From Escherichia coli (GTDB lineage: Bacteria > Pseudomonadota > Gammaproteobacteria > Enterobacterales > Enterobacteriaceae): a stretch of DNA of 64,000 bases. The stretch lies in NCBI RefSeq assembly GCF_050320075.1, contig NZ_CP190018.1, one strand, 5' to 3'. The position numbers were made by a program, and so were the translations under genes. Positions 20,619 to 33,628 of the stretch are shown in pieces. The notes below the pieces were generated by a model. The model made no database searches. It was not told where the DNA came from and saw only the letters and a list, made by a program, of their open reading frames with translations. Numbering within the stretch: the first letter of the stretch is position 1; every line of letters begins with the position of its first letter.

Positions 20619-20656
20619 AAATGCCCGGTCCTGGCGATCGGGCATTTCCATTTTTG
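20619..20656. terminator. Bidirectional terminator shared by pitB (+) and yghT (-)
   Basis: 9-bp stem (aaatgcccg / cgggcattt) with an 11-nt loop, followed by a cca-TTTTT run. Confidence 0.6.
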
Positions 20657-20657
20657 A

Positions 20658-21350
20658 CTAGTGATAACCACGCGCGGTCATAAAATCCGTAATCGCTTTT
20701 TCTGCATCAACCAGTACCTTTTCCAGTGGCTGATTGGCGTCGATATCAACCAGTTGTGCACCACCAAAGGTTAACTGTGGCGTTATGGCTATCTTTCTTG
20801 CCAGCGATTCCCTTTTGTGGTCAGGCTTACGCGCGCAGGCCACATCTAGATCGACATTGAGTTTGATGACCAGATCAGGTTTATGGCTCGCCATCCAGTG
20901 AAACGCTTTACGTTCCTGGCTTGCCAGCCATGAGACAAAACGACCGCCTTCAACGTTAGGTGGGAACACTGTACCATCGTAAGCGCCAGGAATTTGGTCC
21001 TGAGGATAACGGTCGGTTAGAACAATTAACCCGCGACGACGACAGGCAAGCATATGACGAAAGCGCAGTAAGCGACGGGCGACAAACGCTGTAATTACCA
21101 GCGCCGGAACAGGGCCAGGCAATTTTTTTGCTGTTTTCACCTGATTTCGTTCAATTGTTTTATGTAAGGATTTTCCCATCAACGGTAATTTTGTCACTGC
21201 ACGACCGACATTTCCGGCCTGTTTTCCTAAATGAACTCTTTCGGCTGCACCATATTTTTCGACAACGGTAATGAGATGTTCACACACCGTTGACTTGCCT
21301 GAACCATCGCTACCAATAACGGCAATTAATGGAGGTGTTATTGACTGCAT
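20658..21350 (-). CDS. yghT: P-loop NTPase (putative kinase) YghT
   Basis: 230 aa with Walker [10 protein letters not shown] near the N-terminus; paralogous to the next two genes. Confidence 0.85.
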
Positions 21351-21523
21351 GAATATATCCTTTAATTTAAATATCCATTAAAAATATTTATTTGGTTAAT
21401 ATGTTTTTATGAAAGCGTAATTCAGGTCAATGTCACAATTAACCATTGTCACAATAAGGTTGAACGGATATTCTGAGCACGGACCACGTAATATTCAATA
21501 CATTATTTGCTGCCGGGTTTTTC

Positions 21524-22237
21524 GTGAATCAACGTAATATGTCAATAATTAATTCCACGCCAGTGCGTGTTATTGCCATTGTAGGATGTGATGGTTCAGG
21601 TAAATCGACCCTCACGGCAAGCCTGGTAAATGAACTGGCAGCAAGAATGCCAACAGAACACATTTATCTCGGGCAATCGTCCGGGCGAATTGGCGAATGG
21701 ATTTCACAGCTCCCTGTTATTGGCGCACCTTTTGGGCGTTATTTGCGAAGTAAAGCGGCACATGTGCACGAAAAGCCCTTAACACCGCCTGGCAATATTA
21801 CTGCGCTGGTTATCTATCTGCTTTCCTGCTGGCGGGCGTACAAGTTTCGCAAAATGTTGTGTAAAAGCCAGCAAGGCTATCTGCTCATCACCGACCGCTA
21901 CCCGCAGGTTGAAGTGCCGGGTTTTCGCTTTGATGGCCCGCAATTGGCAAAAACCACGGGCGGTAACGGCTGGATAAAAATGTTAAGGCAGCGCGAGCTG
22001 AAGCTGTACCAATGGATGGCGTCTTATTTGCCCGTATTGTTGATTCGTCTTGGCATTGATGAACAAACCGCGTTTTCGCGTAAACCTGACCATCAACTGG
22101 CGGCGTTACAGGAAAAAATCGCCGTTACGCCGCAACTGACATTCAATGGCGCAAAGATCCTTGAACTGGATGGTCGGCAACCAGCCGATGAAATTATGCA
22201 AGCGTCACTACGCGCAATTCACGCCGCGCTTTCCTGA
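21524..22237 (+). CDS. yghS: P-loop NTPase (putative kinase) YghS
   Basis: 237 aa with Walker A GCDGSGKST; paralog of YghT and YghR (shared DRYPQ and ISRKPDH/FSRKPDH motifs). Confidence 0.85.
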   Translation: MNQRNMSIINSTPVRVIAIVGCDGSGKSTLTASLVNELAARMPTEHIYLGQSSGRIGEWISQLPVIGAPFGRYLRSKAAHVHEKPLTPPGNITALVIYLLSCWRAYKFRKMLCKSQQGYLLITDRYPQVEVPGFRFDGPQLAKTTGGNGWIKMLRQRELKLYQWMASYLPVLLIRLGIDEQTAFSRKPDHQLAALQEKIAVTPQLTFNGAKILELDGRQPADEIMQASLRAIHAALS

Positions 22238-22268
22238 TCACCAAAATGGATAGGGGATGATTTAACGA

Positions 22269-23027
22269 ATGGATGCACTACAAACACAAACTGTTAATAG
22301 TACAACCGCGCCGCAGCCCAACTACATTCCGGGGCTGATTGCGGTGGTCGGGTGTGATGGCACCGGTAAATCCACGCTGACCACCGACCTGGTGAAATCG
22401 CTGCAACAACACTGGCAAACCGAGCGCCGCTATTTGGGGCTGCTCTCCGGCGAAGACGGCGACAAAATCAAACGATTGCCGTTGGTTGGCGTCTGGCTGG
22501 AACGGCGACTGGCGGCCAAATCCTCGAAAACCCAAAGCATGAAAACCAAATCTCCAGCGCTATGGGCGGCGGTGATTATGTACTGCTTCTCGCTGCGAAG
22601 AATGGCGAATCTACGCAAGGTTCAGCGACTGGCGCAAAGTGGCGTTCTGGTGGTCAGCGATCGCTTCCCGCAGGCTGAAATTTCGGGCTTTTATTATGAC
22701 GGACCGGGGATTGGCGTCGAGCGCGCGACCGGGAAAATCAACCAATTTCTGGCGCAGCGCGAGCGACAGTTATACCAACAAATGGCGCAGTATCGTCCTG
22801 AATTAATCATTCGTTTGGGGATTGATATTGATACTGCCATCTCCCGCAAGCCTGACCATGACTATGCCGAGCTGCAGGACAAAATCGGCGTCATGTCGAC
22901 GATTGGCTATAACGGCTCAAAAATTCTTGAGATTGATTCCAGAGCGCCCTACAGCGAAGTGCTGGAACAGGCACAGAAGGCGGTTTCTCTGGTTGCCATC
23001 GTTTCTGACCGCCGAAGTTTAACTTAA
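22269..23027 (+). CDS. yghR: P-loop NTPase (putative kinase) YghR
   Basis: 252 aa with Walker A GCDGTGKST; paralog of YghS and YghT. Confidence 0.85.
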   Translation: MDALQTQTVNSTTAPQPNYIPGLIAVVGCDGTGKSTLTTDLVKSLQQHWQTERRYLGLLSGEDGDKIKRLPLVGVWLERRLAAKSSKTQSMKTKSPALWAAVIMYCFSLRRMANLRKVQRLAQSGVLVVSDRFPQAEISGFYYDGPGIGVERATGKINQFLAQRERQLYQQMAQYRPELIIRLGIDIDTAISRKPDHDYAELQDKIGVMSTIGYNGSKILEIDSRAPYSEVLEQAQKAVSLVAIVSDRRSLT

Positions 23028-23072: not shown

Positions 23073-24422
23073 TTGGCGGGTTTTAACATCAAACATTGGT
23101 TTGCAGATGGCGCGTTTCGCACCATTATTCGCAATAGCGCCTGGTTAGGCTCCAGTAATGTCGTGAGCGCTTTGCTGGGTCTGTTGGCGCTCTCGTGTGC
23201 CGGTAAAGGGATGACGCCCGCCATGTTTGGCGTACTGGTGATTGTGCAATCGTACGCCAAGTCGATCAGCGATTTTATTAAGTTTCAGACATGGCAGTTG
23301 GTGGTGCAGTACGGAACGCCAGCCTTGACCAACAATAATCCGCAGCAATTTCGCAATGTCGTCTCATTTTCCTTCTCGTTGGATATCGTCAGCGGCGCGG
23401 TGGCGATTGTCGGCGGCATTGCCTTACTCCCTTTTCTTTCCCATTCATTAGGTCTGGATGACCAAAGCTTTTGGCTGGCAGCGCTGTATTGCACGCTCAT
23501 TCCTTCAATGGCTTCCTCCACGCCGACCGGCATTCTGCGTGCGGTAGATCGCTTCGACTTAATTGCTGTACAGCAGGCGACGAAACCTTTTCTGCGCGCA
23601 GCGGGGAGCGTCGTTGCCTGGTATTTTGACTTTGGTTTTGCGGGTTTTGTTATTGCCTGGTACGCCTCGAATCTTGTTGGCGGCACCATGTACTGGTGGT
23701 TTGCCGCACGTGAATTACGCCGCAGAAATATCCATAACGCGTTCAAATTGAATCTGTTTGAGTCTGCCCGACACATCAAAGGCGCGTGGAGTTTTGTCTG
23801 GTCAACCAACATTGCCCATTCCATCTGGTCGGCGCGTAATTCGTGCAGCACAGTGTTGGTGGGGATCGTGTTAGGACCCGCTGCCGCCGGGTTATTTAAA
23901 ATCGCCATGACATTCTTCGACGCCGCCGGAACGCCAGCGGGTTTACTGGGTAAAAGTTTTTACCCAGAGGTGATGCGTTTAGATCCGCGCACCACCAGAC
24001 CGTGGTTGTTAGGCGTGAAGTCCGGTTTACTGGCGGGCGGAATCGGTATTCTGGTGGCGCTCGCGGTGTTGATCGTCGGCAAGCCGCTCATTTCGCTGGT
24101 GTTTGGCGTTAAGTATCTCGAAGCGTATGACCTGATTCAGGTGATGCTGGGCGCAATTGTGATCTCGATGCTGGGCTTCCCTCAGGAGTCATTGCTATTG
24201 ATGGCGGGAAAACAGCGCGCTTTTCTCGTGGCGCAAACCATCGCCTCAATCGGCTACATCGTATTGCTGTTCATGTTCTGTCATCTGTTTGGCGTGCTGG
24301 GGGCTGCATTTGCTTACTTCGGTGGGCAATGTCTGGATGTGGTGTTCTCGCTAATTCCGACCTTAAAGGCATTTTTTCAGCGCCATTCCTTGCTTTATAA
24401 CTCAGCCGGAGAGAAATCCTGA
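23073..24422 (+). CDS. yghQ: Polytopic membrane protein YghQ, flippase-like (MOP/Wzx-type polysaccharide or lipid translocase fold inferred)
   Basis: Track ORF with a TTG start at 23073. The true start is uncertain; an ATG such as 23211 is possible. About 12 predicted hydrophobic segments. Its stop overlaps the next ORF's ATG. Confidence 0.75.
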   Translation: MAGFNIKHWFADGAFRTIIRNSAWLGSSNVVSALLGLLALSCAGKGMTPAMFGVLVIVQSYAKSISDFIKFQTWQLVVQYGTPALTNNNPQQFRNVVSFSFSLDIVSGAVAIVGGIALLPFLSHSLGLDDQSFWLAALYCTLIPSMASSTPTGILRAVDRFDLIAVQQATKPFLRAAGSVVAWYFDFGFAGFVIAWYASNLVGGTMYWWFAARELRRRNIHNAFKLNLFESARHIKGAWSFVWSTNIAHSIWSARNSCSTVLVGIVLGPAAAGLFKIAMTFFDAAGTPAGLLGKSFYPEVMRLDPRTTRPWLLGVKSGLLAGGIGILVALAVLIVGKPLISLVFGVKYLEAYDLIQVMLGAIVISMLGFPQESLLLMAGKQRAFLVAQTIASIGYIVLLFMFCHLFGVLGAAFAYFGGQCLDVVFSLIPTLKAFFQRHSLLYNSAGEKS

Positions 24423-25246
24423 TGATGAGAAAATATTTCCCGCTTGAGGCGAGCGAGCGTCTATTTGTTGCGATTGAAGAAGATGATGTTGTTGATGCAC
24501 AGGTCAGTTTGCCGCCGACTATCGCACTAAGTTGTACCACCGAAATCATCCATGATAATTACGCGTTATGCCTGCAATTCTGGCTCAATGGCGTCAATCG
24601 CCAGGAGTTACTGCGTTTAATATGCAAACAGGCCAAAGGCGATGAGCTGACTGCTGATGAGCGCAAACAATTTAAATACATGCGAGCGCGCTACAAGCAC
24701 CTGCGTTTTGCGCAACGGCTGTATTTAAAAAAGCATCAGGCCGGATTTTTATTCGGCAAAACGACCGTTTTTTTGGGGCGTTTTCAGGACGGCTTTCGTA
24801 ACGGTAAGAAAAATATTGTGTCGTATTACGGCAACCTGTTACGGGTTTATTTAAGCTCTCCGGTCTGGTCGTTGGTGAACTATTCATTACGCCATAGCCA
24901 GTTAGAAAGCGTAAGCGGTTTTATTGCCTATCGGCAAAAGCAAATGCATACCCTGAAAGAGATAATTGCCAAATCGCGACTAACTGGCAGGGAATTTCAT
25001 GATGTGCGAAAAATCATCAGCCAGCAGGTTTCTTATTACGACACCCTAAGATCGCTTGATCCTGAAAATAAAGAGGCGTTACAGATTTCCCGCTTCCTCG
25101 CCGCCATTAATGGCCTGATGGGGGATAAACACGACGACATGGTGGCGGATGATATGGAAAACCGCCAGTCGTATGATGCACCGATGGCGCTGGATAGCGA
25201 TATTCGTCAGCGCTTAGAACTGCTGATTTCGCGTTTTCCGCTATAA
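24422..25246 (+). CDS. Hypothetical soluble protein, 274 aa, translationally coupled to yghQ
   Basis: The ATG at 24422 overlaps the yghQ TGA. No signal peptide or TM segment and no family recognised; basic composition. Confidence 0.55.
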   Translation: MMRKYFPLEASERLFVAIEEDDVVDAQVSLPPTIALSCTTEIIHDNYALCLQFWLNGVNRQELLRLICKQAKGDELTADERKQFKYMRARYKHLRFAQRLYLKKHQAGFLFGKTTVFLGRFQDGFRNGKKNIVSYYGNLLRVYLSSPVWSLVNYSLRHSQLESVSGFIAYRQKQMHTLKEIIAKSRLTGREFHDVRKIISQQVSYYDTLRSLDPENKEALQISRFLAAINGLMGDKHDDMVADDMENRQSYDAPMALDSDIRQRLELLISRFPL

Positions 25247-25254
25247 CCGGAGCA

Positions 25255-25818
25255 ATGATGTCATCTCGTTTGATTATTGCGCTGGTTATCATGCTCTTAG
25301 CCCCGGGTGTGCAGGCGCACAATTTCGTCACTGGTAAAACGGTTACCCCTGTTTATATCCAGGAAGGCGGCGAGCTGCTTCTGAATAGCGAAGACGAAAT
25401 TCACTACCAAAAGTGGAACAGCACACAGCTGGCGGGAAAAGTCCGCATTATTCAGTATATCGCCGGGCGTAAGTCGGCGAAGAAAAAGAACTCACTGTTA
25501 ATTAAAGCGGTTGAAGCGGCAAACTTTCCGCAGGATCGTTTTCAGCCCACCACCATTGTGAACACTGATGATGCCATCTTTGGTACCGACTATTTTGTCG
25601 TTGGCAAAATCGAAAAAAATAAACGCCGCTATCCATGGGCGCAATTCGTTATTGACGGCAATGGACAGGGACGCGTTGCCTGGCACTTGCAGGAGCAGAG
25701 TTCAACCATTCTGGTGCTGAATAAAACCGGGCAAATTCAGTGGGCAAAGGACGGCAGTCTGACGCCGGAAGAGGTAGATCATGTCATTGCGCTGGCGCAG
25801 AAACTGATCAATGAATAA
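25255..25818 (+). CDS. YtfJ-family periplasmic protein (signal peptide)
   Basis: 187 aa with an N-terminal signal (MMSSRLIIALVIMLLAPGVQA). It resembles recalled E. coli YtfJ over its whole length (HNFVTGKTVTP..., TTIVNTDDAI..., WAKDGSLTPEEV). Confidence 0.7.
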   Translation: MMSSRLIIALVIMLLAPGVQAHNFVTGKTVTPVYIQEGGELLLNSEDEIHYQKWNSTQLAGKVRIIQYIAGRKSAKKKNSLLIKAVEAANFPQDRFQPTTIVNTDDAIFGTDYFVVGKIEKNKRRYPWAQFVIDGNGQGRVAWHLQEQSSTILVLNKTGQIQWAKDGSLTPEEVDHVIALAQKLINE

Positions 25819-25848
25819 AAAATTCAAAGGATTGAGGGCGTTAGTGAG

Positions 25849-26919
25849 ATGAAGCTGGTTGAACACTACATCATGCGTGGTACGCGCCGTCTGGTGCTGA
25901 TTATCGTCGGTTTTCTGATCTTTATTTTCGCCAGCTACTCCGCACAGCGTTATCTGACCGAAGCGGCAAATGGGACATTAGCTCTTGATGTTGTGCTGGA
26001 TATCGTTTTCTACAAGGTGCTGATTGCACTGGAGATGTTGTTACCTGTTGGACTGTATGTGTCAGTTGGCGTGACGCTAGGGCAGATGTATACCGACTCG
26101 GAAATTACCGCTATCTCTGCGGCGGGGGGCAGTCCGGGACGCTTGTACAAAGCCGTTCTTTATCTGGCGATACCGCTAAGTATTTTTGTCACCCTTCTGT
26201 CGATGTATGGTCGTCCGTGGGCTTATGCACAGATTTATCAACTGGAGCAACAGTCACAGTCGGAGCTGGATGTTCGCCAGTTGCGGGCAAAGAAATTTAA
26301 CACTAACGATAACGGACGAATGATCCTTTCGCAGACGGTTGATCAGGATAATAATCGCCTGACTGACGCGCTGATTTATACTTCTACTGCCAATCGAACC
26401 CGCATTTTCCGCGCCCGTTCGGTTGATGTGGTTGACCCATCACCTGAGAAACCGACCGTTATGTTGCATAACGGGACCGCCTATCTTCTCGATCATCAGG
26501 GGCGTGACGACAACGAACAGATCTACCGTAATCTGCAATTACATCTGAATCCGCTGGATCAAAGCCCTAACGTCAAACGCAAAGCAAAATCGGTCACGGA
26601 GCTGGCGCGCTCCGTCTTTCCAGCCGATCATGCCGAACTGCAATGGCGACAAAGCCGTGGCCTGACAGCGTTGTTGATGGCGCTGCTGGCCATTTCATTA
26701 AGTCGGGTAAAACCGCGGCAAGGGCGATTTTCAACGTTATTGCCACTGACGTTGCTGTTTGTTGCCATTTTTTATGGCGGCGACGTCTGCCGTACGCTGG
26801 TGGCTAACGGCGCGATTCCCCTCATTCCTGGTTTGTGGTTAGTACCCGGACTCATGCTAATGGGCCTGCTGATGCTGGTCGCACGCGACTTCTCTTTGCT
26901 GCAGAAATTTTCCCGATGA
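25849..26919 (+). CDS. LptF-like permease (YjgP/YjgQ family) paralog
   Basis: 356 aa with the LptF/LptG architecture: three TM segments, a large periplasmic insert, then three TM segments. N-terminus MKLVEHYIMRGTRRLVLIIVGFL. Distinct from housekeeping lptF. Confidence 0.75.
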   Translation: MKLVEHYIMRGTRRLVLIIVGFLIFIFASYSAQRYLTEAANGTLALDVVLDIVFYKVLIALEMLLPVGLYVSVGVTLGQMYTDSEITAISAAGGSPGRLYKAVLYLAIPLSIFVTLLSMYGRPWAYAQIYQLEQQSQSELDVRQLRAKKFNTNDNGRMILSQTVDQDNNRLTDALIYTSTANRTRIFRARSVDVVDPSPEKPTVMLHNGTAYLLDHQGRDDNEQIYRNLQLHLNPLDQSPNVKRKAKSVTELARSVFPADHAELQWRQSRGLTALLMALLAISLSRVKPRQGRFSTLLPLTLLFVAIFYGGDVCRTLVANGAIPLIPGLWLVPGLMLMGLLMLVARDFSLLQKFSR

Positions 26920-27995
26920 ATGTTTTCAGTCGCTATTTAATCCGTCATCTCTTTCTCGGTTTTGCCGCCGCCGCAGGGCTATTGCTGCCGCTTTTTACTA
27001 CCTTCAACCTGATTAACGAACTGGATGATGTCAGCCCGGGCGGTTATCGCTGGACTCAGGCGGTGCTGGTGGTGCTGATGACCTTACCGCGTACACTGGT
27101 CGAACTTTCGCCGTTTATCGCCTTATTGGGAGGGATTGTTGGCCTGGGGCAGTTATCGAAAAACAGTGAGCTTACCGCCATTCGCAGCACAGGGTTTTCT
27201 ATCTTCCGTATTGCACTGGTGGCGCTGGTTGCCGGGATATTGTGGACTGTTTCGTTAGGCGCGATAGATGAGTGGGTGGCGTCGCCATTGCAGCAACAGG
27301 CGCTGCAAATCAAATCGACTGCCACCGCGTTGGGGGAGGACGATGACATTACCGGCAATATGCTTTGGGCCAGGCGCGGTAATGAATTTGTGACGGTGAA
27401 ATCGCTGAACGAGCAGGGCCAGCCTGTGGGCGTGGAGATATTTCATTATCGCGACGATCTCTCGCTCGAATCCTACATTTTTGCACGCAGTGCCTCCATT
27501 GAAGACGACAAAACATGGATCCTGCATGGTGTGAATCATAAAAAATGGTTGAATGGCAAAGAAACGCTGGAAACATCAGATAATCTTGCCTGGCAATCGG
27601 CCTTCACCAGTATGAATCTTGAAGAGTTATCGATGCCGGGAAATACTTTTTCTGTCCGTCAACTTAATCATTACATCCATTATTTGCAGGAAACTGGGCA
27701 ACCCAGCAGCGAATACCGCCTTGCACTGTGGGAAAAACTGGGACAACCCATCCTGACCCTGGCGATGATTTTGCTGGCTGTGCCGTTTACCTTTAGTGCC
27801 CCGCGTTCGCCAGGGATGGGTAGCCGTCTCGCTGTAGGCGTCATCGTTGGCTTACTCACCTGGATCAGCTATCAAATCATGGTCAATCTGGGGTTGCTAT
27901 TTGCGTTGAGCGCACCTGTTACCGCGCTCGGTTTACCGGTAGCGTTTGTGCTGGTGGCGTTGAGCCTGGTGTATTGGTATGACAGACAACATTAA
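26916..27995 (+). CDS. LptG-like permease (YjgP/YjgQ family) paralog
   Basis: Track ORF 26835..27995 trimmed to the ATG at 26916 (MNVFSRYLIRHLFLGFAAAAG...), which overlaps the stop of the preceding permease (ATGA). Same architecture as LptG. Confidence 0.75.
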   Translation: MNVFSRYLIRHLFLGFAAAAGLLLPLFTTFNLINELDDVSPGGYRWTQAVLVVLMTLPRTLVELSPFIALLGGIVGLGQLSKNSELTAIRSTGFSIFRIALVALVAGILWTVSLGAIDEWVASPLQQQALQIKSTATALGEDDDITGNMLWARRGNEFVTVKSLNEQGQPVGVEIFHYRDDLSLESYIFARSASIEDDKTWILHGVNHKKWLNGKETLETSDNLAWQSAFTSMNLEELSMPGNTFSVRQLNHYIHYLQETGQPSSEYRLALWEKLGQPILTLAMILLAVPFTFSAPRSPGMGSRLAVGVIVGLLTWISYQIMVNLGLLFALSAPVTALGLPVAFVLVALSLVYWYDRQH

Positions 27996-28029
27996 ACCCG
28001 CCGTGGCGCAGCGCCACAGCGGGCTCACA

Positions 28030-29202
28030 TTACTGCTTCAGAGTAGCGAACGCTTGAATGATGGCATCAATTTGCTCACGACTGTGGGCAGCGTTTACGC
28101 TACAGCGCAGCAGCGTGATGCCTGCAGGCGCGGCAGGTGGCAGGATAAGATTCACATAAACGCCCAGCGAAATAAGCTCGCGCCAGATGCGTAAACCGTC
28201 CTCTTTCGAACCGATTATTACTGGCACTACCGGGCTAATATGTGAACTTAACTCGTAACCCAGTTTTTGCAGACCGTCATACAGATGGTTGGCATTATCC
28301 ATCAGCTTTTGCCGCAACTCTGGTTGTGTAGCAATGGTTCTTAACGACGAGCGCACGGTCGCAATGCAGGACGGAGAAGGAGAGGCGGTAAAAATATACG
28401 GGCGGCTGCCGTAGCGCAGCACTTCCATCGCTTCCGAACCGACAGCAAAACCGCCAATCGAGGCCAGACTTTTACTGAAAGTACCAACGATAATATCCAC
28501 ATCATCTTCAACGCCAACGGCTTCAGCCAGTCCGCGCCCCGTTGCGCCTAACACGCCAAACGAATGCGCTTCATCGACAATCAAATAACCACCGAGACGA
28601 CGTTTGATATCAACAATTTCCGCCAGCGGCGCAACGTCACCGAGCATACTGTAGATGCCTTCAACGATGATAATCGCCTCTTTTGCCCGTTCACCGAGGC
28701 GAACCATGCGCCGTTCCAGATCTTTAGCATCGTTATGGCGGAAACGAATAATTTCCGCGCCACCGAGAGAACAGGCGTCATAAATACTGGCGTGGCTGTC
28801 GGCATCCAGTAACACCACGGCGTTATGGTCGGCAAGTGCGCTGATGACGCCTAAATTAGCGGTATAACCGGTTGAAAAAACGATAGCGGTAGGGCGATTA
28901 AAAAACTCGGCGATCTCTTTCTCTAACGCCAGATGCGGCGCATAACTGCCGTTTGCCATACGAGAACCGGTGGTGCCGGTGCCTTGGGCCGCTAACGCTG
29001 CCTGACCTTCGGCGATGGCATCATGATTGAAGGTTAATCCGAGATAATTATTGGTCCCGGCCAGAATCACTTTTTTATTGCCGATCCGGCCTTCGGTGGC
29101 GGAATACACTTCATCAATACAGGTACCAAACGGCGTTAACCCGTTGTCACTAAATTGCAGTCGCTCGCCAGCAAGACGCGCATATTTATCGTATAGCCCC
29201 AT
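28030..29202 (-). CDS. Alpha-oxoamine synthase (class-II aminotransferase), serine-palmitoyltransferase-like
   Basis: 390 aa with the PLP-lysine motif GTFSKSLASIGG and a HSFG motif, typical of the Spt/BioF/KBL family. Last gene of a four-gene minus-strand operon. Confidence 0.8.
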   Translation of the reverse strand: MGLYDKYARLAGERLQFSDNGLTPFGTCIDEVYSATEGRIGNKKVILAGTNNYLGLTFNHDAIAEGQAALAAQGTGTTGSRMANGSYAPHLALEKEIAEFFNRPTAIVFSTGYTANLGVISALADHNAVVLLDADSHASIYDACSLGGAEIIRFRHNDAKDLERRMVRLGERAKEAIIIVEGIYSMLGDVAPLAEIVDIKRRLGGYLIVDEAHSFGVLGATGRGLAEAVGVEDDVDIIVGTFSKSLASIGGFAVGSEAMEVLRYGSRPYIFTASPSPSCIATVRSSLRTIATQPELRQKLMDNANHLYDGLQKLGYELSSHISPVVPVIIGSKEDGLRIWRELISLGVYVNLILPPAAPAGITLLRCSVNAAHSREQIDAIIQAFATLKQ

Positions 29203-29450
29203 TATTTATTCTCCAGCCATGGAAGTAGTGTTTCCATTAATTGCGCAGGGGTTTTGACATCCAGCAGAATATTAATAGGAATGGAAATATCGAATCTGTC
29301 TTCCAGCATCATTAAGAGATCCATCACTTTGATCGACTCCAGGCCAAGATCGTTGACGAGATCGCTGTCGGGCTTAATTTCCACACCGTTTTCGACCAAA
29401 TCCTGTAAACAGGAAAGGATGTAATCCATTACTATTTCACGATTTACCAT
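29202..29450 (-). CDS. Standalone acyl carrier protein
   Basis: 82 aa with a phosphopantetheine-attachment-like motif (DLGLESIKVMDL). Its stop overlaps the start of the downstream alpha-oxoamine synthase. Confidence 0.75.
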   Translation of the reverse strand: MVNREIVMDYILSCLQDLVENGVEIKPDSDLVNDLGLESIKVMDLLMMLEDRFDISIPINILLDVKTPAQLMETLLPWLENK

Positions 29451-29481
29451 AGAAACGTTAACACACCTTTAAACAAGACAA

Positions 29482-30396
29482 TCAAAATAGCCCGTTGCGT
29501 AATGCGTGTTCCAGGCTAATCCCGGGAAACCAATTAATATCTTCAGAAATACGGTTATTACTTGCTGACCAGTCGGCGTGGGTTAATTCACGGATTTTCG
29601 AGCGGGTCAGCATAGGTTCTTTACCTGCCAGGCGACTCAACGTGGTACTGATATCCGCAAGGCAGGTGAGTACCGACAGAGGAATACCAACCATTCGAAC
29701 GGAACCACAACGGGCGTCGGCGGCAAGCTGTCTTACGCGTTGCCAGTCATAGCCGCCGGCGACGCCATCGCATAATTCATAGGTTTGCGTCTGTACAGTT
29801 TCGGCGCTTAACCACTGCCCCACGGCTTGCGCGAAATCGGTGACGTGCAGGAAAGAGAGCTGTGTATCTGGCGCACCAAGTCGTGGCAGCAGGCCGCGCA
29901 GCATCCAGTCAAACAGCGGTTTTAACTCTTTATCGCCGGGACCATACACGGCTGTCGGGCGAAAAATGCCCAGCGTAATTTCGTCAGCCATTGCGGTCAG
30001 TCGTTGTTCGGCGACGTGTTTGGAGTTTGCATACCAGGAGAGTTCGGGATGACGCGCCGCCAGCGAAGAGATAAACAGAAAACGTTGGCAAAAGCCGCTC
30101 TCTTTTGCCGCTTGCATCAGGCGCAGGCTGCCGTCAACGTTACAGCGGGTAAAAATCTCTTCTTTGTGTCCGCGCACTTGTCCGGCGCAATGGACCACCG
30201 CGCTGGCTCCGGCAACCAGTTCGCTAAGCGAATGTGTATCTTCCAGCGAACCGCGCACCCAGATGAGATTATCATTGACGTGAGCGCGGGCAGTACGCGT
30301 CAATGCGCGAACGTGAAAGCCGCGGGCGAGCAGGTTATCGATAATATATTTACCGATAAACCCGGTAGCGCCCGTCACCGCGACAGTTTGATTCAT
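29482..30396 (-). CDS. NAD(P)-dependent epimerase/dehydratase (extended SDR) family reductase
   Basis: 304 aa with an N-terminal GATGFIG Rossmann motif and a YANSK (YxxxK) catalytic motif. Its start overlaps the upstream ligase stop by 4 nt. Confidence 0.8.
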   Translation of the reverse strand: MNQTVAVTGATGFIGKYIIDNLLARGFHVRALTRTARAHVNDNLIWVRGSLEDTHSLSELVAGASAVVHCAGQVRGHKEEIFTRCNVDGSLRLMQAAKESGFCQRFLFISSLAARHPELSWYANSKHVAEQRLTAMADEITLGIFRPTAVYGPGDKELKPLFDWMLRGLLPRLGAPDTQLSFLHVTDFAQAVGQWLSAETVQTQTYELCDGVAGGYDWQRVRQLAADARCGSVRMVGIPLSVLTCLADISTTLSRLAGKEPMLTRSKIRELTHADWSASNNRISEDINWFPGISLEHALRNGLF

Positions 30397-32114
30397 GCCA
30401 GGGATTCCTGCACATGAAGGCTTGCAGCATAAGCCTTCTGATAACGTTTTTTCGCTTCCGCACGGGCAGGCTTGCCGGAGGACGTTCGGGGAATACTGTG
30501 GGGCGGCAACAGATCGATAGCCGCGGTCACGCCAAATTCGCTTTGGATCCGTGCTGCCAGCGCGTGGATAAGCTGCCCGCGACGTTCTTCATCGCTGATC
30601 CGACACTGGATCTGCAAAATGATTTTTTCCTGGGCGGTAACAAAAGCAATCGCATCGCCAGAATGAATTTCCGGTTCCTGTTCCGCAATATATTCAATAT
30701 CCTGCGGCCAGATATTGCGGCCACGAATAATAATCAGATCTTTAATGCGTCCGGTGACATACAGATAACCGTCCAGCAGATAACCGAGGTCGCCGGTGTC
30801 TAACCAGCCCGTCGCGGCAATCTCGTCTTGTGAAATCTGGTCGCCAAAGTAACCGCTCATCAGGCTAGGGCCGGAGATGCAAATATGGCCTACCACACGT
30901 TCCGCGACAGGTATACCTGCTTCATTGCGGATTTCAATGCCATGTTCCGGCAACGCTTTACCGCAGTTGACGAAAGTCGATACGGCGCGTGTTTCAGCAT
31001 CCGGCGCGACGGCTTTGCCCTGATATTCGAGGATGTCGCGATCCACTTCGTTAACCACAACCCCGGAAGCTTCATCAGAGAAGCTGACAGCCAGCGCATT
31101 TTCTGCCAGTCCGTAGCACGGCATGAACGTTTTATCGTCAAAGTTAACCTGACGAAAACATTCAGCGAATTGATGGAGTTGTTCTGCGGAGATCGGTTCT
31201 GCGCCAATACCAGCGACGCGCCAGCAGGAAAGATCCAGTTCAGCGAGATCTTTTTCATTCACGCGGCGCTGGCACAATTCATAGCCAAACGGCGGCGCAA
31301 CGGAAACGGTGCCGCGATTTTTACTGATCAATTTAAGCCATTGCAGAGGACGCATGGCAAAATCCTGAGTGCGCAAATAATCTACTGAGAGCTGCGTGGC
31401 GACGGGGGTCAGGAGAAAGCCGACCAGTCCCATATCATGGTAGAAAGGCAGCCAGGAGACGCAGCGGTCGCCAGGGCGTAATTTAATGCCATCGTGGCTT
31501 ATAGCACGTAGATTAGCCATCACTTCGCGATGGGTGATAATGACGCCACGGGGAAAACGGGTGCTGCCGGAGGTGTACTGGAGGTAGGCGATATCGTTCG
31601 GAACTGGACGCTGGAGTGCAACATCGGCTTCCGGTAATGCCTTAAACCAGGCGTGGCTTAAAACATGTAATTCGGGTTTGTTATGCGTCGCGGCATTGAC
31701 CAGCGGTAACCACTCATCACCAGTGATAATGGCTGCGGGCTGGCAACTTGCCAGTAAACCCTGCAGTTTGGCGCTCCAGGAATCCCGCTGACCGACGCCC
31801 ATTGGAATCGCCAACGGGACGGCGATTAAGCCGGCATACTGGCAGGAAAAAAAAGCCTCTACGAACCCGCTACTGGTTTCGGCAATCAGCGCCACGCGAT
31901 CGCCTTTTTTCAGGTTCAGCGATAACAACCGCTTCGCACCAGCTTCGGCACGCGCTTTTAACGTCTGATATTCCAGTTGATCTTCAAGTTGGCAACGTCT
32001 GTCATAAAAATTCATTCCGGCGCTACTCAGAGCGGCGTAGTCCAAAGCATCAACCAGCGTTGGAAAATCGGCATAGCGCATAGGTAGGGAATGCGTAAAG
32101 ATTTTATTAGACAT
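30393..32114 (-). CDS. AMP-binding enzyme, fatty-acyl-AMP ligase or acyl-ACP synthetase-like
   Basis: Track ORF 30393..32141 trimmed to the ATG at the complement of 32112-32114 (MSNKIFTHSLPMRY...). Adenylation core motif YTSGSTRFPRGV. First gene of the operon. Confidence 0.8.
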   Translation of the reverse strand: MSNKIFTHSLPMRYADFPTLVDALDYAALSSAGMNFYDRRCQLEDQLEYQTLKARAEAGAKRLLSLNLKKGDRVALIAETSSGFVEAFFSCQYAGLIAVPLAIPMGVGQRDSWSAKLQGLLASCQPAAIITGDEWLPLVNAATHNKPELHVLSHAWFKALPEADVALQRPVPNDIAYLQYTSGSTRFPRGVIITHREVMANLRAISHDGIKLRPGDRCVSWLPFYHDMGLVGFLLTPVATQLSVDYLRTQDFAMRPLQWLKLISKNRGTVSVAPPFGYELCQRRVNEKDLAELDLSCWRVAGIGAEPISAEQLHQFAECFRQVNFDDKTFMPCYGLAENALAVSFSDEASGVVVNEVDRDILEYQGKAVAPDAETRAVSTFVNCGKALPEHGIEIRNEAGIPVAERVVGHICISGPSLMSGYFGDQISQDEIAATGWLDTGDLGYLLDGYLYVTGRIKDLIIIRGRNIWPQDIEYIAEQEPEIHSGDAIAFVTAQEKIILQIQCRISDEERRGQLIHALAARIQSEFGVTAAIDLLPPHSIPRTSSGKPARAEAKKRYQKAYAASLHVQESLA

Positions 32115-32141
32115 ATACACCACGAAAAAATTGGATATCAA

Positions 32142-32485
32142 AAATAAAATGACAATAATGCGGTGGATTATATAGGCATAAAAGATAAATGAGATAGTAT
32201 TTTCATCAGTGTGAAAATGAACATTGATTTAAATAATGAGTTTGAGTTTTTTTGTTTTTATTGTGAATGATATTTAATTTATGAATGTATTAAGAAGAAG
32301 CCTTGTCCGGTCGCCTTAAATCGACAAAAGGCATTGTGGCGCTTCTGTGTAGTCTCTGACCTTATCGTAATCATTAATAAATACTATTTATTCGTCGTTT
32401 GTATTCATTGGGTTGATTATTAAGGTGCCGTTCGTTGCTGTTGCAACCTGTTTGTCACCGTTAATTATTTGTTACCCACAGAACT
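32142..32485. promoter_or_regulatory. AT-rich divergent promoter region between the ligase operon (-) and the yghO-like gene (+)
   Basis: 344-bp non-coding, visibly AT-rich segment. No individual sites were mapped. Confidence 0.4.
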
Positions 32486-33628
32486 ATGGAATGCGATCTG
32501 CTGATGATTAAAATTGAAAAAGTAATTAATAAAAATGACCTTAAGGCATTTATCGCTTTTCCGTCATCACTTTATCCCGACGATCCAAACTGGATACCCC
32601 CTTTATTCATTGAACGCAACGAGCATTTGTCTGCGAAAAATCCGGGGACGGACCATATCATCTGGCAGGCGTGGGTGGCAAAAAAAGCAGGGCAGATAGT
32701 TGGGCGTATTACCGCGCAAATCGATACCTTGCACCGCGAGCGTTACGGCAAAGATACCGGTCATTTCGGCATGATTGACGCCATTGATGATCCGCAGGTT
32801 TTTGCCGCGTTGTTTGGCGCAGCGGAAGCGTGGTTGAAGTCACAAGGTGCAAGTAAGATCAGCGGTCCTTTCAGCCTGAATATCAATCAGGAAAGCGGAT
32901 TACTGATTGAAGGTTTCGATACACCACCCTGTGCGATGATGCCACACGGCAAACCGTGGTATGCCGCGCATATTGAACAATTGGGTTATCACAAAGGCAT
33001 TGATTTACTGGCGTGGTGGATGCAGCGAACCGATCTCACTTTCTCTCCGGCCCTAAAAAAACTGATGGATCAGGTGCGCAAAAAAGTGACCATTCGCTGC
33101 ATCAATCGCCAGCGGTTTGCCGAAGAGATGCAAATCCTGCGTGAGATTTTCAACTCTGGCTGGCAGCACAACTGGGGATTTGTGCCGTTTACCGAACATG
33201 AGTTCGCGACCATGGGCGATCAACTTAAATATCTGGTGCCGGACGATATGATCTACATCGCTGAGATTGATTCTGCACCCTGCGCGTTTATTGTCGGCTT
33301 GCCGAACATCAACGAGGCGATTGCCGATCTGAACGGATCGCTCTTTCCCTTCGGCTGGGCAAAATTGCTGTGGCGTTTGAAAGTCAGCGGTGTGCGAACT
33401 GCGCGAGTACCGCTGATGGGCGTGCGGGACGAGTATCAGTTCAGCCGCATCGGCCCGGTGATTGCGCTGTTATTGATTGAAGCCTTACGCGATCCGTTTG
33501 CCCGCCGGAAGATCGATGCGCTGGAGATGTCATGGATCCTCGAAACCAATACAGGCATGAATAACATGCTGGAACGCATTGGGGCGGAGCCGTACAAGCG
33601 TTACCGATTGTATGAAAAGCAGATTTGA
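32486..33628 (+). CDS. yghO: YghO-like protein, intact; candidate acyltransferase (function inferred from context, not proven)
   Basis: 380-aa ORF (the start may instead be the ATG at 32504). Soluble, no signal peptide. Sits between the lipid operon and glcC, where K-12 has the yghO remnant. Confidence 0.65.
   Translation: MECDLLMIKIEKVINKNDLKAFIAFPSSLYPDDPNWIPPLFIERNEHLSAKNPGTDHIIWQAWVAKKAGQIVGRITAQIDTLHRERYGKDTGHFGMIDAIDDPQVFAALFGAAEAWLKSQGASKISGPFSLNINQESGLLIEGFDTPPCAMMPHGKPWYAAHIEQLGYHKGIDLLAWWMQRTDLTFSPALKKLMDQVRKKVTIRCINRQRFAEEMQILREIFNSGWQHNWGFVPFTEHEFATMGDQLKYLVPDDMIYIAEIDSAPCAFIVGLPNINEAIADLNGSLFPFGWAKLLWRLKVSGVRTARVPLMGVRDEYQFSRIGPVIALLLIEALRDPFARRKIDALEMSWILETNTGMNNMLERIGAEPYKRYRLYEKQI

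Follow-up and report, generated by a model that had tools for sequence, protein, structure and literature searches.

The genes yghT, yghS and yghR lie in a stretch of Escherichia coli DNA of 64,000 nt (RefSeq assembly GCF_050320075.1, contig NZ_CP190018.1), referred to here as the window, next to genes for lipid synthesis and export. Sequence comparison solidly places their products among the phosphotransferases of the dTMP kinase (dTMPK) superfamily, distinct from thymidylate kinase (Tmk). They belong functionally with the flippase YghQ and a neighbouring CHAD-domain protein, in a module that is tied to producers of Spt-type sphingolipids. The most likely role of YghT, YghS and YghR (YghT/S/R) is to put phosphate onto the E. 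coli sphingolipid, and not the synthesis of DNA precursors.

Paralogy and fold of YghT, YghS and YghR

yghT is located at positions 20658-21350 of the window on the minus strand and encodes a T-type kinase of the dTMPK superfamily with 230 aa and a pI of 9.9. The genes yghS (21524-22237, 237 aa, GTG start) and yghR (22269-23027, 252 aa) are on the plus strand and encode the S-type and the R-type paralog, respectively. RefSeq annotates the same open reading frames in an E. coli genome that is 100% identical. The window is from a non-K-12 chromosome, and several E. coli chromosomes other than K-12 match it at 100% over 4.5 kb with the same genes annotated. Pairwise BLASTP revealed 43.3% identity between YghS and YghR (217 aa, E 8e-63), 35.9% between YghT and YghS (217 aa, E 6e-53), and 34.1% between YghT and YghR (220 aa, E 7e-48). 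This likeness is far above chance, and the three proteins are paralogs. An earlier note, made from the DNA sequence alone, had claimed three P-loop paralogs of about 230–250 aa with shared motifs, and this is confirmed at 34–43% identity.

The Walker A motif reads GSDGSGKST in YghT (21288-21314), GCDGSGKST in YghS (21584-21610) and GCDGTGKST in YghR (22350-22376). A second motif is DRYPQ in YghT (21000-21014) and YghS (21893-21907) and DRFPQ in YghR (22659-22673). The third one, with the common core RKPDH, has the form CARKPDH in YghT (20817-20837), FSRKPDH in YghS (22073-22093) and ISRKPDH in YghR (22839-22859); the earlier note had found all of these motifs, but had assigned FSRKPDH/ISRKPDH to the whole group and missed the variant in YghT. 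Its description of the genes as tandem holds for yghS and yghR, but not for yghT, which is transcribed divergently from yghS. It was right in that yghT is divergent and that yghS and yghR lead into yghQ. yghT and yghS are separated by an AT-rich spacer of 173 bp (21351-21523), while the gaps between yghS and yghR and between yghR and yghQ have 31 bp and 45 bp.

Structure comparison gave a dTMPK-like, three-layer P-loop kinase as the closest fold of YghT/S/R. A family profile made from 25 sequences matched TMPK structures with an E value of 1.7e-11, covering the P-loop, the helix plus the DRY segment, and the LID. When the family was aligned to E. coli Tmk by hhalign (96.3% probability, 197 columns), the P-loop, the equivalent of Arg78 in the helix before DRx, the DRx Arg, and the Arg/Lys of the LID were paired. 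The P-loop Lys, the DRx Arg and a basic LID are present in all three proteins. Of 136 kinase domains, taken across the three orthogroups, almost every one has Walker A, DRxPQ and RKPDH; DRxPQ is retained in 35 of 36 R-type, 44 of 44 S-type and 50 of 56 T-type domains. The three copies therefore look catalytically active. Fold assignment had been proposed in the earlier note as a check, and its outcome, a thymidylate kinase fold, falls into the kinase class. The suggestion that the proteins are kinases is thus borne out for the type of P-loop and the dTMPK-like fold, while a lipid as the substrate is a point that we infer.

Several lines of evidence separate the family from Tmk. YghT, YghS and YghR reached 24.3, 25.3 and 31.7 bits with the dTMP kinase equivalog TIGR00041, whose curated cutoff is 83.25 bits, and NCBIfam returned sub-threshold dTMP kinase and P-loop matches only. 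With Pfam nothing significant was found for YghS (Thymidylate_kin, i-E 0.012). Identity to Tmk is about 20%, far under the family cutoffs (TIGR00041/PF02223). RefSeq/PGAP calls both YghS and YghT 'dTMP kinase', but since their scores of 24–25 bits are far under the cutoff, this name is a propagated over-annotation. A separate canonical tmk gene is present elsewhere in the E. coli genome, and yghT, yghS and yghR do not occupy the tmk-holB position but occur as 2–4 paralogs per locus in sphingolipid/flippase loci.

The differences extend to the acceptor side. After DRx, the Tmk stretch DRHdlstqayqg is aligned by hhalign with the family-invariant DRYPQxExxGxxDGP (DR[YF]PQ..G..DGP). We take the base- and sugar-recognition residues of Tmk, Thr105 and Tyr108, to be placed in this stretch, and in YghT/S/R the DR[YF]PQ..G..DGP and RKPDH motifs stand in place of dTMP-recognition residues. 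Tmk uses two arginines as a clamp for the donor phosphates and for those of the acceptor, which is itself phosphorylated. The acceptor domain of YghT/S/R exceeds that of Tmk by a basic insert of about 25 residues; its net charge is +10 to +18, and the pI values of the proteins are 9.5–9.9. The earlier note had seen a nucleotide-metabolism fold with conserved catalytic residues and without any link to the locus as an argument against its view. The fold is indeed one of nucleotide metabolism, but this refutation fails because the substrate-specific residues of Tmk are not conserved and a strong link to the locus exists.

A regex search of YghT, YghS and YghR detected neither an ABC signature (LSGGQ-like) nor a Walker B motif of the hhhhDE type. 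An LptB-like ATPase was dropped as a candidate on this ground, and also because ABC matches were limited to the P-loop and the fold is a different one. The three proteins share only Walker A with LptB and other ABC ATPases, and the earlier statement that they do not belong to this class is correct. PPK2 polyphosphate kinase was dropped without any sequence or structural signal, and a BY-kinase-type regulator as well as membership in LpxK were dropped on fold and motifs, with LpxK missing from the top 60 structural matches. LpxK, the lipid A 4'-kinase, works in a comparable way, as a P-loop kinase acting on a membrane lipid bound for flipping and Lpt export, but it is of another P-loop lineage, membrane-anchored and single-copy. 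Defence models from PADLOC gave P-loop-level noise only (E >= 2e-4) with the three proteins.

The conserved module around the kinases

The gene following yghR, yghQ (23073-24422, plus strand), encodes a flippase of 449 aa from the MOP/PST family (Wzx-like); this assignment is based on a weak NCBIfam match to 'MOP flippase family' and on Pfam Polysacc_synt_3 in the Serratia ortholog. Its stop codon is overlapped by the start of a gene for a 274 aa 'hypothetical protein' (24422-25246, plus strand). No match to this protein was found in Pfam, NCBIfam or a PDB sequence search, and its alignment, in which Lys, Arg and His residues are invariant, could not be matched by hhalign to the CHAD-containing E. 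coli protein YgiF either. The assignment therefore rests on structure comparison and ortholog annotation, by which the 274 aa protein is a CHAD-domain protein, with the polyphosphate-binding fold. Polyphosphate binding is known for other CHAD proteins.

Orthologs of YghS are widespread in Enterobacterales. A scan of GTDB species genomes with the family alignment of YghT/S/R yielded at least 75 loci, and the loci listed were searched with all proteins of the E. coli locus, an HMM for the 274 aa protein and a kinase HMM. Among the 75 loci listed, 51 contain a kinase with at least about 36% identity to YghT. The hosts of these close loci are Enterobacterales, Dyella, Luteibacter, Halioglobus, Lysobacteraceae and Pseudomonas, Sphingomonadaceae (Novosphingobium, Sphingomonas, Sphingobium, Sphingopyxis), Acetobacteraceae (Acetobacter, Gluconobacter, Commensalibacter, Bombella, Saccharibacter), several Beta- and Deltaproteobacteria known as metagenome-assembled genomes (MAGs), and Nitrosomonas-like lineages. 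Several of these lineages were listed as Spt-bearing (PMC9386255). Most of the 51 loci carry 2–4 kinase genes. A YghQ homolog is present in 33 of them, a homolog of the CHAD protein in 35, and genes of the spt/acpR/reductase/aasR group are found within 10 kb in 19. None of the 24 distant single-copy loci listed (Pontibacter, Bradyrhizobium, Firmicutes and others) has spt genes, YghQ or CHAD.

The gene order also supports this association. In Serratia marcescens the locus is rearranged, with the spt operon upstream of yghT and not downstream of lptG2, but the block yghT | yghS-yghR-yghQ-(CHAD)-ytfJ-lptF2-lptG2 is still attached to it. The ceramide genes of Sphingomonadaceae and Acetobacteraceae lie elsewhere, but the genes for the kinases, YghQ and the 274 aa protein stay together as a tight unit. 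The tie to the adjacent lipid/export locus, already assumed in the earlier note, is upheld by the rearranged Serratia locus and by many other taxa. Taken together, these data are solid evidence that YghT/S/R belong functionally with YghQ and the CHAD protein and that the module is tied to Spt-type sphingolipid producers. Three points go beyond the earlier note: the locus is a ceramide cluster, the triplication is ancient, and YghQ and the CHAD protein are constant partners.

According to a rough neighbour-joining tree without support values and to best hits, the kinases form two ancient clades, T and S/R, and S and R split later. The T clade is common to Alpha-, Beta- and Gammaproteobacteria, and both the T and the S/R orthogroups reach Alphaproteobacteria. 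All modules on long contigs have at least one T-type and at least one S/R-type kinase. Only one type was seen on short or split contigs, and in a MAG of the Betaproteobacteria the T copy is about 14 kb away from the S/R pair. The kinase HMM detected in-frame fusions of T and S/R in Saccharibacter floricola and two Bombella species, and S-R as well as T-S/R fusions also occur among database representatives. These natural fusions suggest that T-type and S/R-type kinases act together physically.

Genes for lipid-phosphate phosphatases of the PAP2 family, either a secreted 182 aa type or a membrane type of 239 aa, recur inside or next to the module outside the enterobacteria, with at least 10 such loci in five lineages (L023, 5884-6432; L028, 8404-9123 and 9276-9821; also L021, L026, L027, L029, L036, L040, L043 and L048). 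In Halioglobus, the module includes genes for an LptA-like periplasmic protein (L023, 9905-10441; L027, 5493-6026) beside those for LptF2/G2, which suggests a more complete dedicated Lpt-type bridge.

The wider kinase family comprises 2202 representatives at an E value of 1e-3 or better. Many of them have about 500 aa, and the N-terminal domain matched NTP_transf_5 in 4 of 14 fusions examined. One protein (P0235) is a triple fusion of a flippase, a nucleotidyltransferase (NTase)-like domain and a kinase, and a separate GT4-kinase fusion exists. In a GT4/sulfotransferase cluster (L082, 6457-10233) an NTase-kinase gene overlaps a gene for a Polysacc_synt_3 flippase at the stop of the latter. Since distant relatives are fused to flippases or overlap with their genes, the association of the kinase with MOP flippases is older than the sphingolipid module. 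The gene context of the NTase-kinase fusion P0168 was uninformative.

Some further observations were made in this wider family. The fusion gene in L082 is followed by a gene for another small P-loop protein. Fusions of NTP_transf_5-like domains to the kinase form a large, distant subfamily (among P0168-P0270). A protein of 2487 aa (P0128) has 39 stretches matching the kinase profile but no BLASTP match to YghT/S/R, and may be repetitive or artefactual.

The sphingolipid locus of E. coli

The lipid/export locus adjacent to the kinase genes corresponds to the (dihydro)ceramide cluster of rhodobacteria in its E. coli form. The gene for the CHAD protein is followed on the plus strand by a gene of the ytfJ family (25255-25818; TIGR01626, 213 bits), which belongs to the enterobacterial version of the operon and whose product has an N-terminal signal-like peptide and is probably periplasmic. 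Next are lptF2 (25849-26919) and lptG2 (26916-27995), for paralogs of LptF and LptG (PF03739), with an overlap of 4 nt when the RefSeq start is used. For lptG2 the mechanical open reading frame starts with a GTG at 26835 and the RefSeq gene at 26916; RefSeq names the two products merely 'LPS export ABC transporter permease LptF/LptG'. The gaps along yghQ, the 274 aa gene, ytfJ, lptF2 and lptG2 are -1, 8, 30 and -4 bp. Considering the short gaps, the genes from yghS through yghR, yghQ, the 274 aa gene and ytfJ to lptF2 and lptG2 look like one operon.

LptB or another ATPase for LptF2G2 is not encoded within the locus. Caulobacter needs LptF2/LptG2 to export its sphingolipids, and there the two proteins bind LptB of the housekeeping system (bioRxiv 10.64898/2026.04.12.717747). 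By analogy, the E. coli LptF2/LptG2 pair is presumed to be a sphingolipid extractor that uses housekeeping LptB, and the use of this protein in Caulobacter supports the view that YghT/S/R need not be the missing ATPase.

The operon for dihydroceramide synthesis (28030-32114, minus strand) consists, by RefSeq annotation, of spt (28030-29202), acpR (29202-29450), a gene for a CerR-like epimerase/reductase (29482-30396), and aasR (30393-32114). Beyond aasR lies yghO (32486-33628, plus strand), a homolog of bacterial ceramide synthase/acyl-CoA N-acyltransferase (aca, ECD_02850). The orthologs in E. coli B are ECD_02850-02854, and AasR, AcpR and Spt have been characterised biochemically (PMC9386255). 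In K-12, yghO is annotated as 'putative DNA-binding transcriptional regulator' though it is an aca homolog.

The yghTSR region was found in 5082 of 5426 complete E. coli genomes, and the segment from the 274 aa gene to spt (at least 80% coverage) in 4086 of them, about three quarters. The intact locus is the normal state in E. coli. K-12 MG1655 carries IS5 between yghO and a truncated yghQ (NC_000913.3 3130146-3131340, corresponding to about 24140-32500 of the window), and an IS5-associated deletion has removed the CHAD gene, ytfJ, lptF2, lptG2, spt, acpR, the reductase gene and aasR. As the core of the locus is lost, yghQ'RST are orphaned remnants in this strain.

Promoters in both directions are presumed in the spacer between yghT and yghS. 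A single sigma-70-like match in it (21446-21474) was weak and at chance level, and the scan for promoters and terminators stayed at chance level everywhere except for a hairpin between the convergent genes pitB and yghT. This hairpin (20619-20647) has a 12 bp stem and is likely a bidirectional terminator. An FlhDC SELEX peak has been reported for the K-12 yghS/yghT spacer (about position 3134000; PMC9962212).

Possible function of the kinases

Our preferred reading, to which we give somewhat less than an even chance, is that YghT/S/R, the CHAD protein and YghQ form a cassette that phosphorylates the head group of ceramide and provides an anionic lipid for flipping and Lpt export. It builds on the paralogy, the fold, motif conservation, synteny, the fusions and the neighbour being a CHAD protein, all of which are observed; that the substrate is a lipid, how many phosphates it receives, and that the kinases form a complex are what we infer from them. 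At the inner membrane, on its cytoplasmic face, AasR, AcpR, Spt, the reductase and YghO would produce (dihydro)ceramide. Its head group would then be phosphorylated at the expense of ATP by kinases of the T type and the S/R type, which probably work as a hetero-oligomer. If they act in a dTMPK-like way, the acceptor would already be phosphorylated, and one or more phosphoanhydride-linked phosphates would be added. The basic CHAD protein would hold the phosphate-rich head group, YghQ would flip the anionic lipid, and LptB2-LptF2G2 would extract it for transfer to the outer membrane.

Comparison to Caulobacter is in favour of a head-group function. The E. coli locus shares the ceramide, flippase and LptF2G2 genes with the Caulobacter locus, but has no homologs of the Caulobacter ceramide kinase CpgB, the CDP-alcohol transferase or the nucleotidyltransferases. 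Since YghT/S/R and the CHAD protein stand where the cpg genes are absent, a head-group cassette is the simplest reading. Like CpgB (CC_1160) and the other cpg gene products, they would act in the variable part of an Spt-type locus and provide an anionic phosphate head group before LptF2G2. There is no homology to CpgB, an enzyme of the DAG kinase family, and the Caulobacter pathway also needs the CDP-alcohol transferase and nucleotidyltransferases. A homolog of YghT/S/R was not seen in descriptions of the Caulobacter locus, but the GTDB loci listed do not establish its absence.

The two clamping Arg, the basic acceptor site, the CHAD partner and the recurrent PAP2 genes suggest that the product may be phosphorylated more than once. 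Pyrophosphate-linked lipids are the usual substrates of MOP flippases. Also in favour of a lipid substrate are one or two N-terminal hydrophobic, TM-like segments in the family members P0130, P0136, P0139, P0144 and P0180, which could be membrane anchors or artefacts of the gene start, and the flippases and GT4 glycosyltransferases that distant relatives have as fusion partners or overlapping genes. A bolder version, which we consider doubtful, is that the T and S/R kinases build a ceramide-linked phosphoanhydride chain (di-, tri- or longer), which is bound or measured by the CHAD protein, flipped by YghQ and exported by LptB2-LptF2G2. If this were true, the majority of E. coli strains and many of the Proteobacteria that produce sphingolipids would have a ceramide-anchored oligo- or polyphosphate, a new class of polyanionic outer-membrane lipid made by a new class of lipid kinase, and the number of paralogs (2–4) would set the number of steps.

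Several points weigh against a ceramide head-group kinase. To our knowledge, no member of the dTMPK superfamily has a lipid acceptor, and sphingomonads and Acetobacteraceae are known for glycosylated or free ceramides, not for phosphorylated ones. Literature searches on yghR/S/T, on the sphingolipid of UTI89 and on thymidylate kinase in connection with bacterial sphingolipids found no functional study, and the only four papers in which the proteins are mentioned do not deal with their function. The acceptor domain has low confidence in the AF2 model (residues 51–82), and no membrane segment is predicted for the E. coli proteins. Caulobacter CerR was reported to be periplasmic (PMC11087976); with such a location, the membrane would separate mature ceramide from a kinase in the cytoplasm. 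By analogy, the combination of a CHAD protein with a paired dTMPK architecture would equally fit the soluble polyphosphate kinase PPK3.

In the latter case, a hetero-oligomer of T and S/R would interconvert ATP/ADP and inorganic oligo- or polyphosphate that is held by the CHAD protein, and the link to sphingolipids would be indirect, e.g., by way of a phosphoryl donor or an envelope polyanion. PPK3 of Sulfolobus acidocaldarius (SaPPK3; Saci_2019/Saci_2020) consists of two adjacent 'thymidylate kinases' that form an alpha2beta2 complex and are encoded in an operon with a CHAD protein (PMC12995831). The resemblance is considerable: in both systems adjacent paralogs with dTMPK fold were mis-annotated as thymidylate kinases, a CHAD protein is encoded in the same gene cluster, dTMP-binding residues are lost and a basic acceptor site is gained. 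A hetero-oligomer is also expected for YghT/S/R, as T-type and S/R-type kinases are obligate partners and some genomes have them as natural fusions. However, regulatory PPK3 subunits have lost the DRx Arg, which is kept in all YghT/S/R paralogs, so that none of them is an obvious regulatory subunit. The neighbourhoods viewed (E. coli, Serratia and other loci) contained no ppx, sixA or pst gene, and the adjacency of pitB to the kinase genes was seen in E. coli only. A specific affinity to the PPK3 structure is also lacking: canonical TMPKs are nearer (E 1.7e-11) than 2plr (E 1.7e-5, P-loop only), which has the same distinct sequence as 5h70, a cPPK3 homolog, and served as sole proxy for PPK3 affinity. 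PPK1 and PPX are already present in E. coli. Most PPK3 hosts, in contrast, are without PPK1 and PPK2 (PMC12995831). Finally, a function in inorganic polyphosphate metabolism leaves unexplained why the kinases always occur with a MOP flippase, usually with sphingolipid, Lpt or PAP2 genes, and why they are restricted to lineages that produce sphingolipids. We therefore regard a PPK3-like function, although it is the main rival, as unlikely.

Somewhat less probable still is that the kinases act on a soluble precursor, either a nucleotide or another small molecule, which a transferase encoded elsewhere would then join to ceramide or to another envelope glycoconjugate. The many distant relatives that are fused to NTP_transf_5 or located in GT4/sulfotransferase/flippase clusters would resemble such an activation pathway, but members of the YghT/S/R subfamily have no NTase-like domain. 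The modules of E. coli, Serratia, Sphingomonads and Acetobacteraceae contain no transferase, and the CHAD protein is the sole soluble non-kinase partner.

It is improbable that YghT/S/R are nucleotide-dependent regulators or energisers of YghQ or LptF2G2 instead of biosynthetic kinases. Their constant location beside a flippase gene, the fusion to a flippase in one distant relative and the gene overlap in another, and the lack of an own ATPase for LptF2G2 in the locus would fit such a role. The conservation of the catalytic set directed to the acceptor (DRx Arg, Arg78 equivalent, LID Arg/Lys) argues against it, as do the missing ABC signature and the binding of LptF2G2 to housekeeping LptB in Caulobacter. 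Moreover, MOP flippases are not ATP-driven.

That the proteins are genuine thymidylate kinases, as the fold, the motifs and the RefSeq names of YghS and YghT might suggest, can practically be dismissed in view of scores of 24–32 bits against a cutoff of 83.25, the replacement of the recognition stretch after DRx by PQ...G..DGP, the basic insert in the acceptor domain, the canonical tmk gene elsewhere and the experimental disproof of the same mis-annotation for PPK3 (PMC12995831).

The loss of the core of the locus from K-12 probably explains why the y-genes yghQ'RST stayed uncharacterised. Our analysis assigns YghT/S/R to a conserved module whose other members are a CHAD protein and a MOP flippase, and it flags a systematic mis-annotation as 'dTMP kinase' in RefSeq. 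The module would represent a second case, after the archaeal PPK3, of thymidylate kinase paralogs that were exapted together with a CHAD protein. The flippase step is a missing piece in models of bacterial sphingolipid export, for which YghQ is a candidate, and the head group of the E. coli-type sphingolipid becomes directly testable by genetics and lipidomics.

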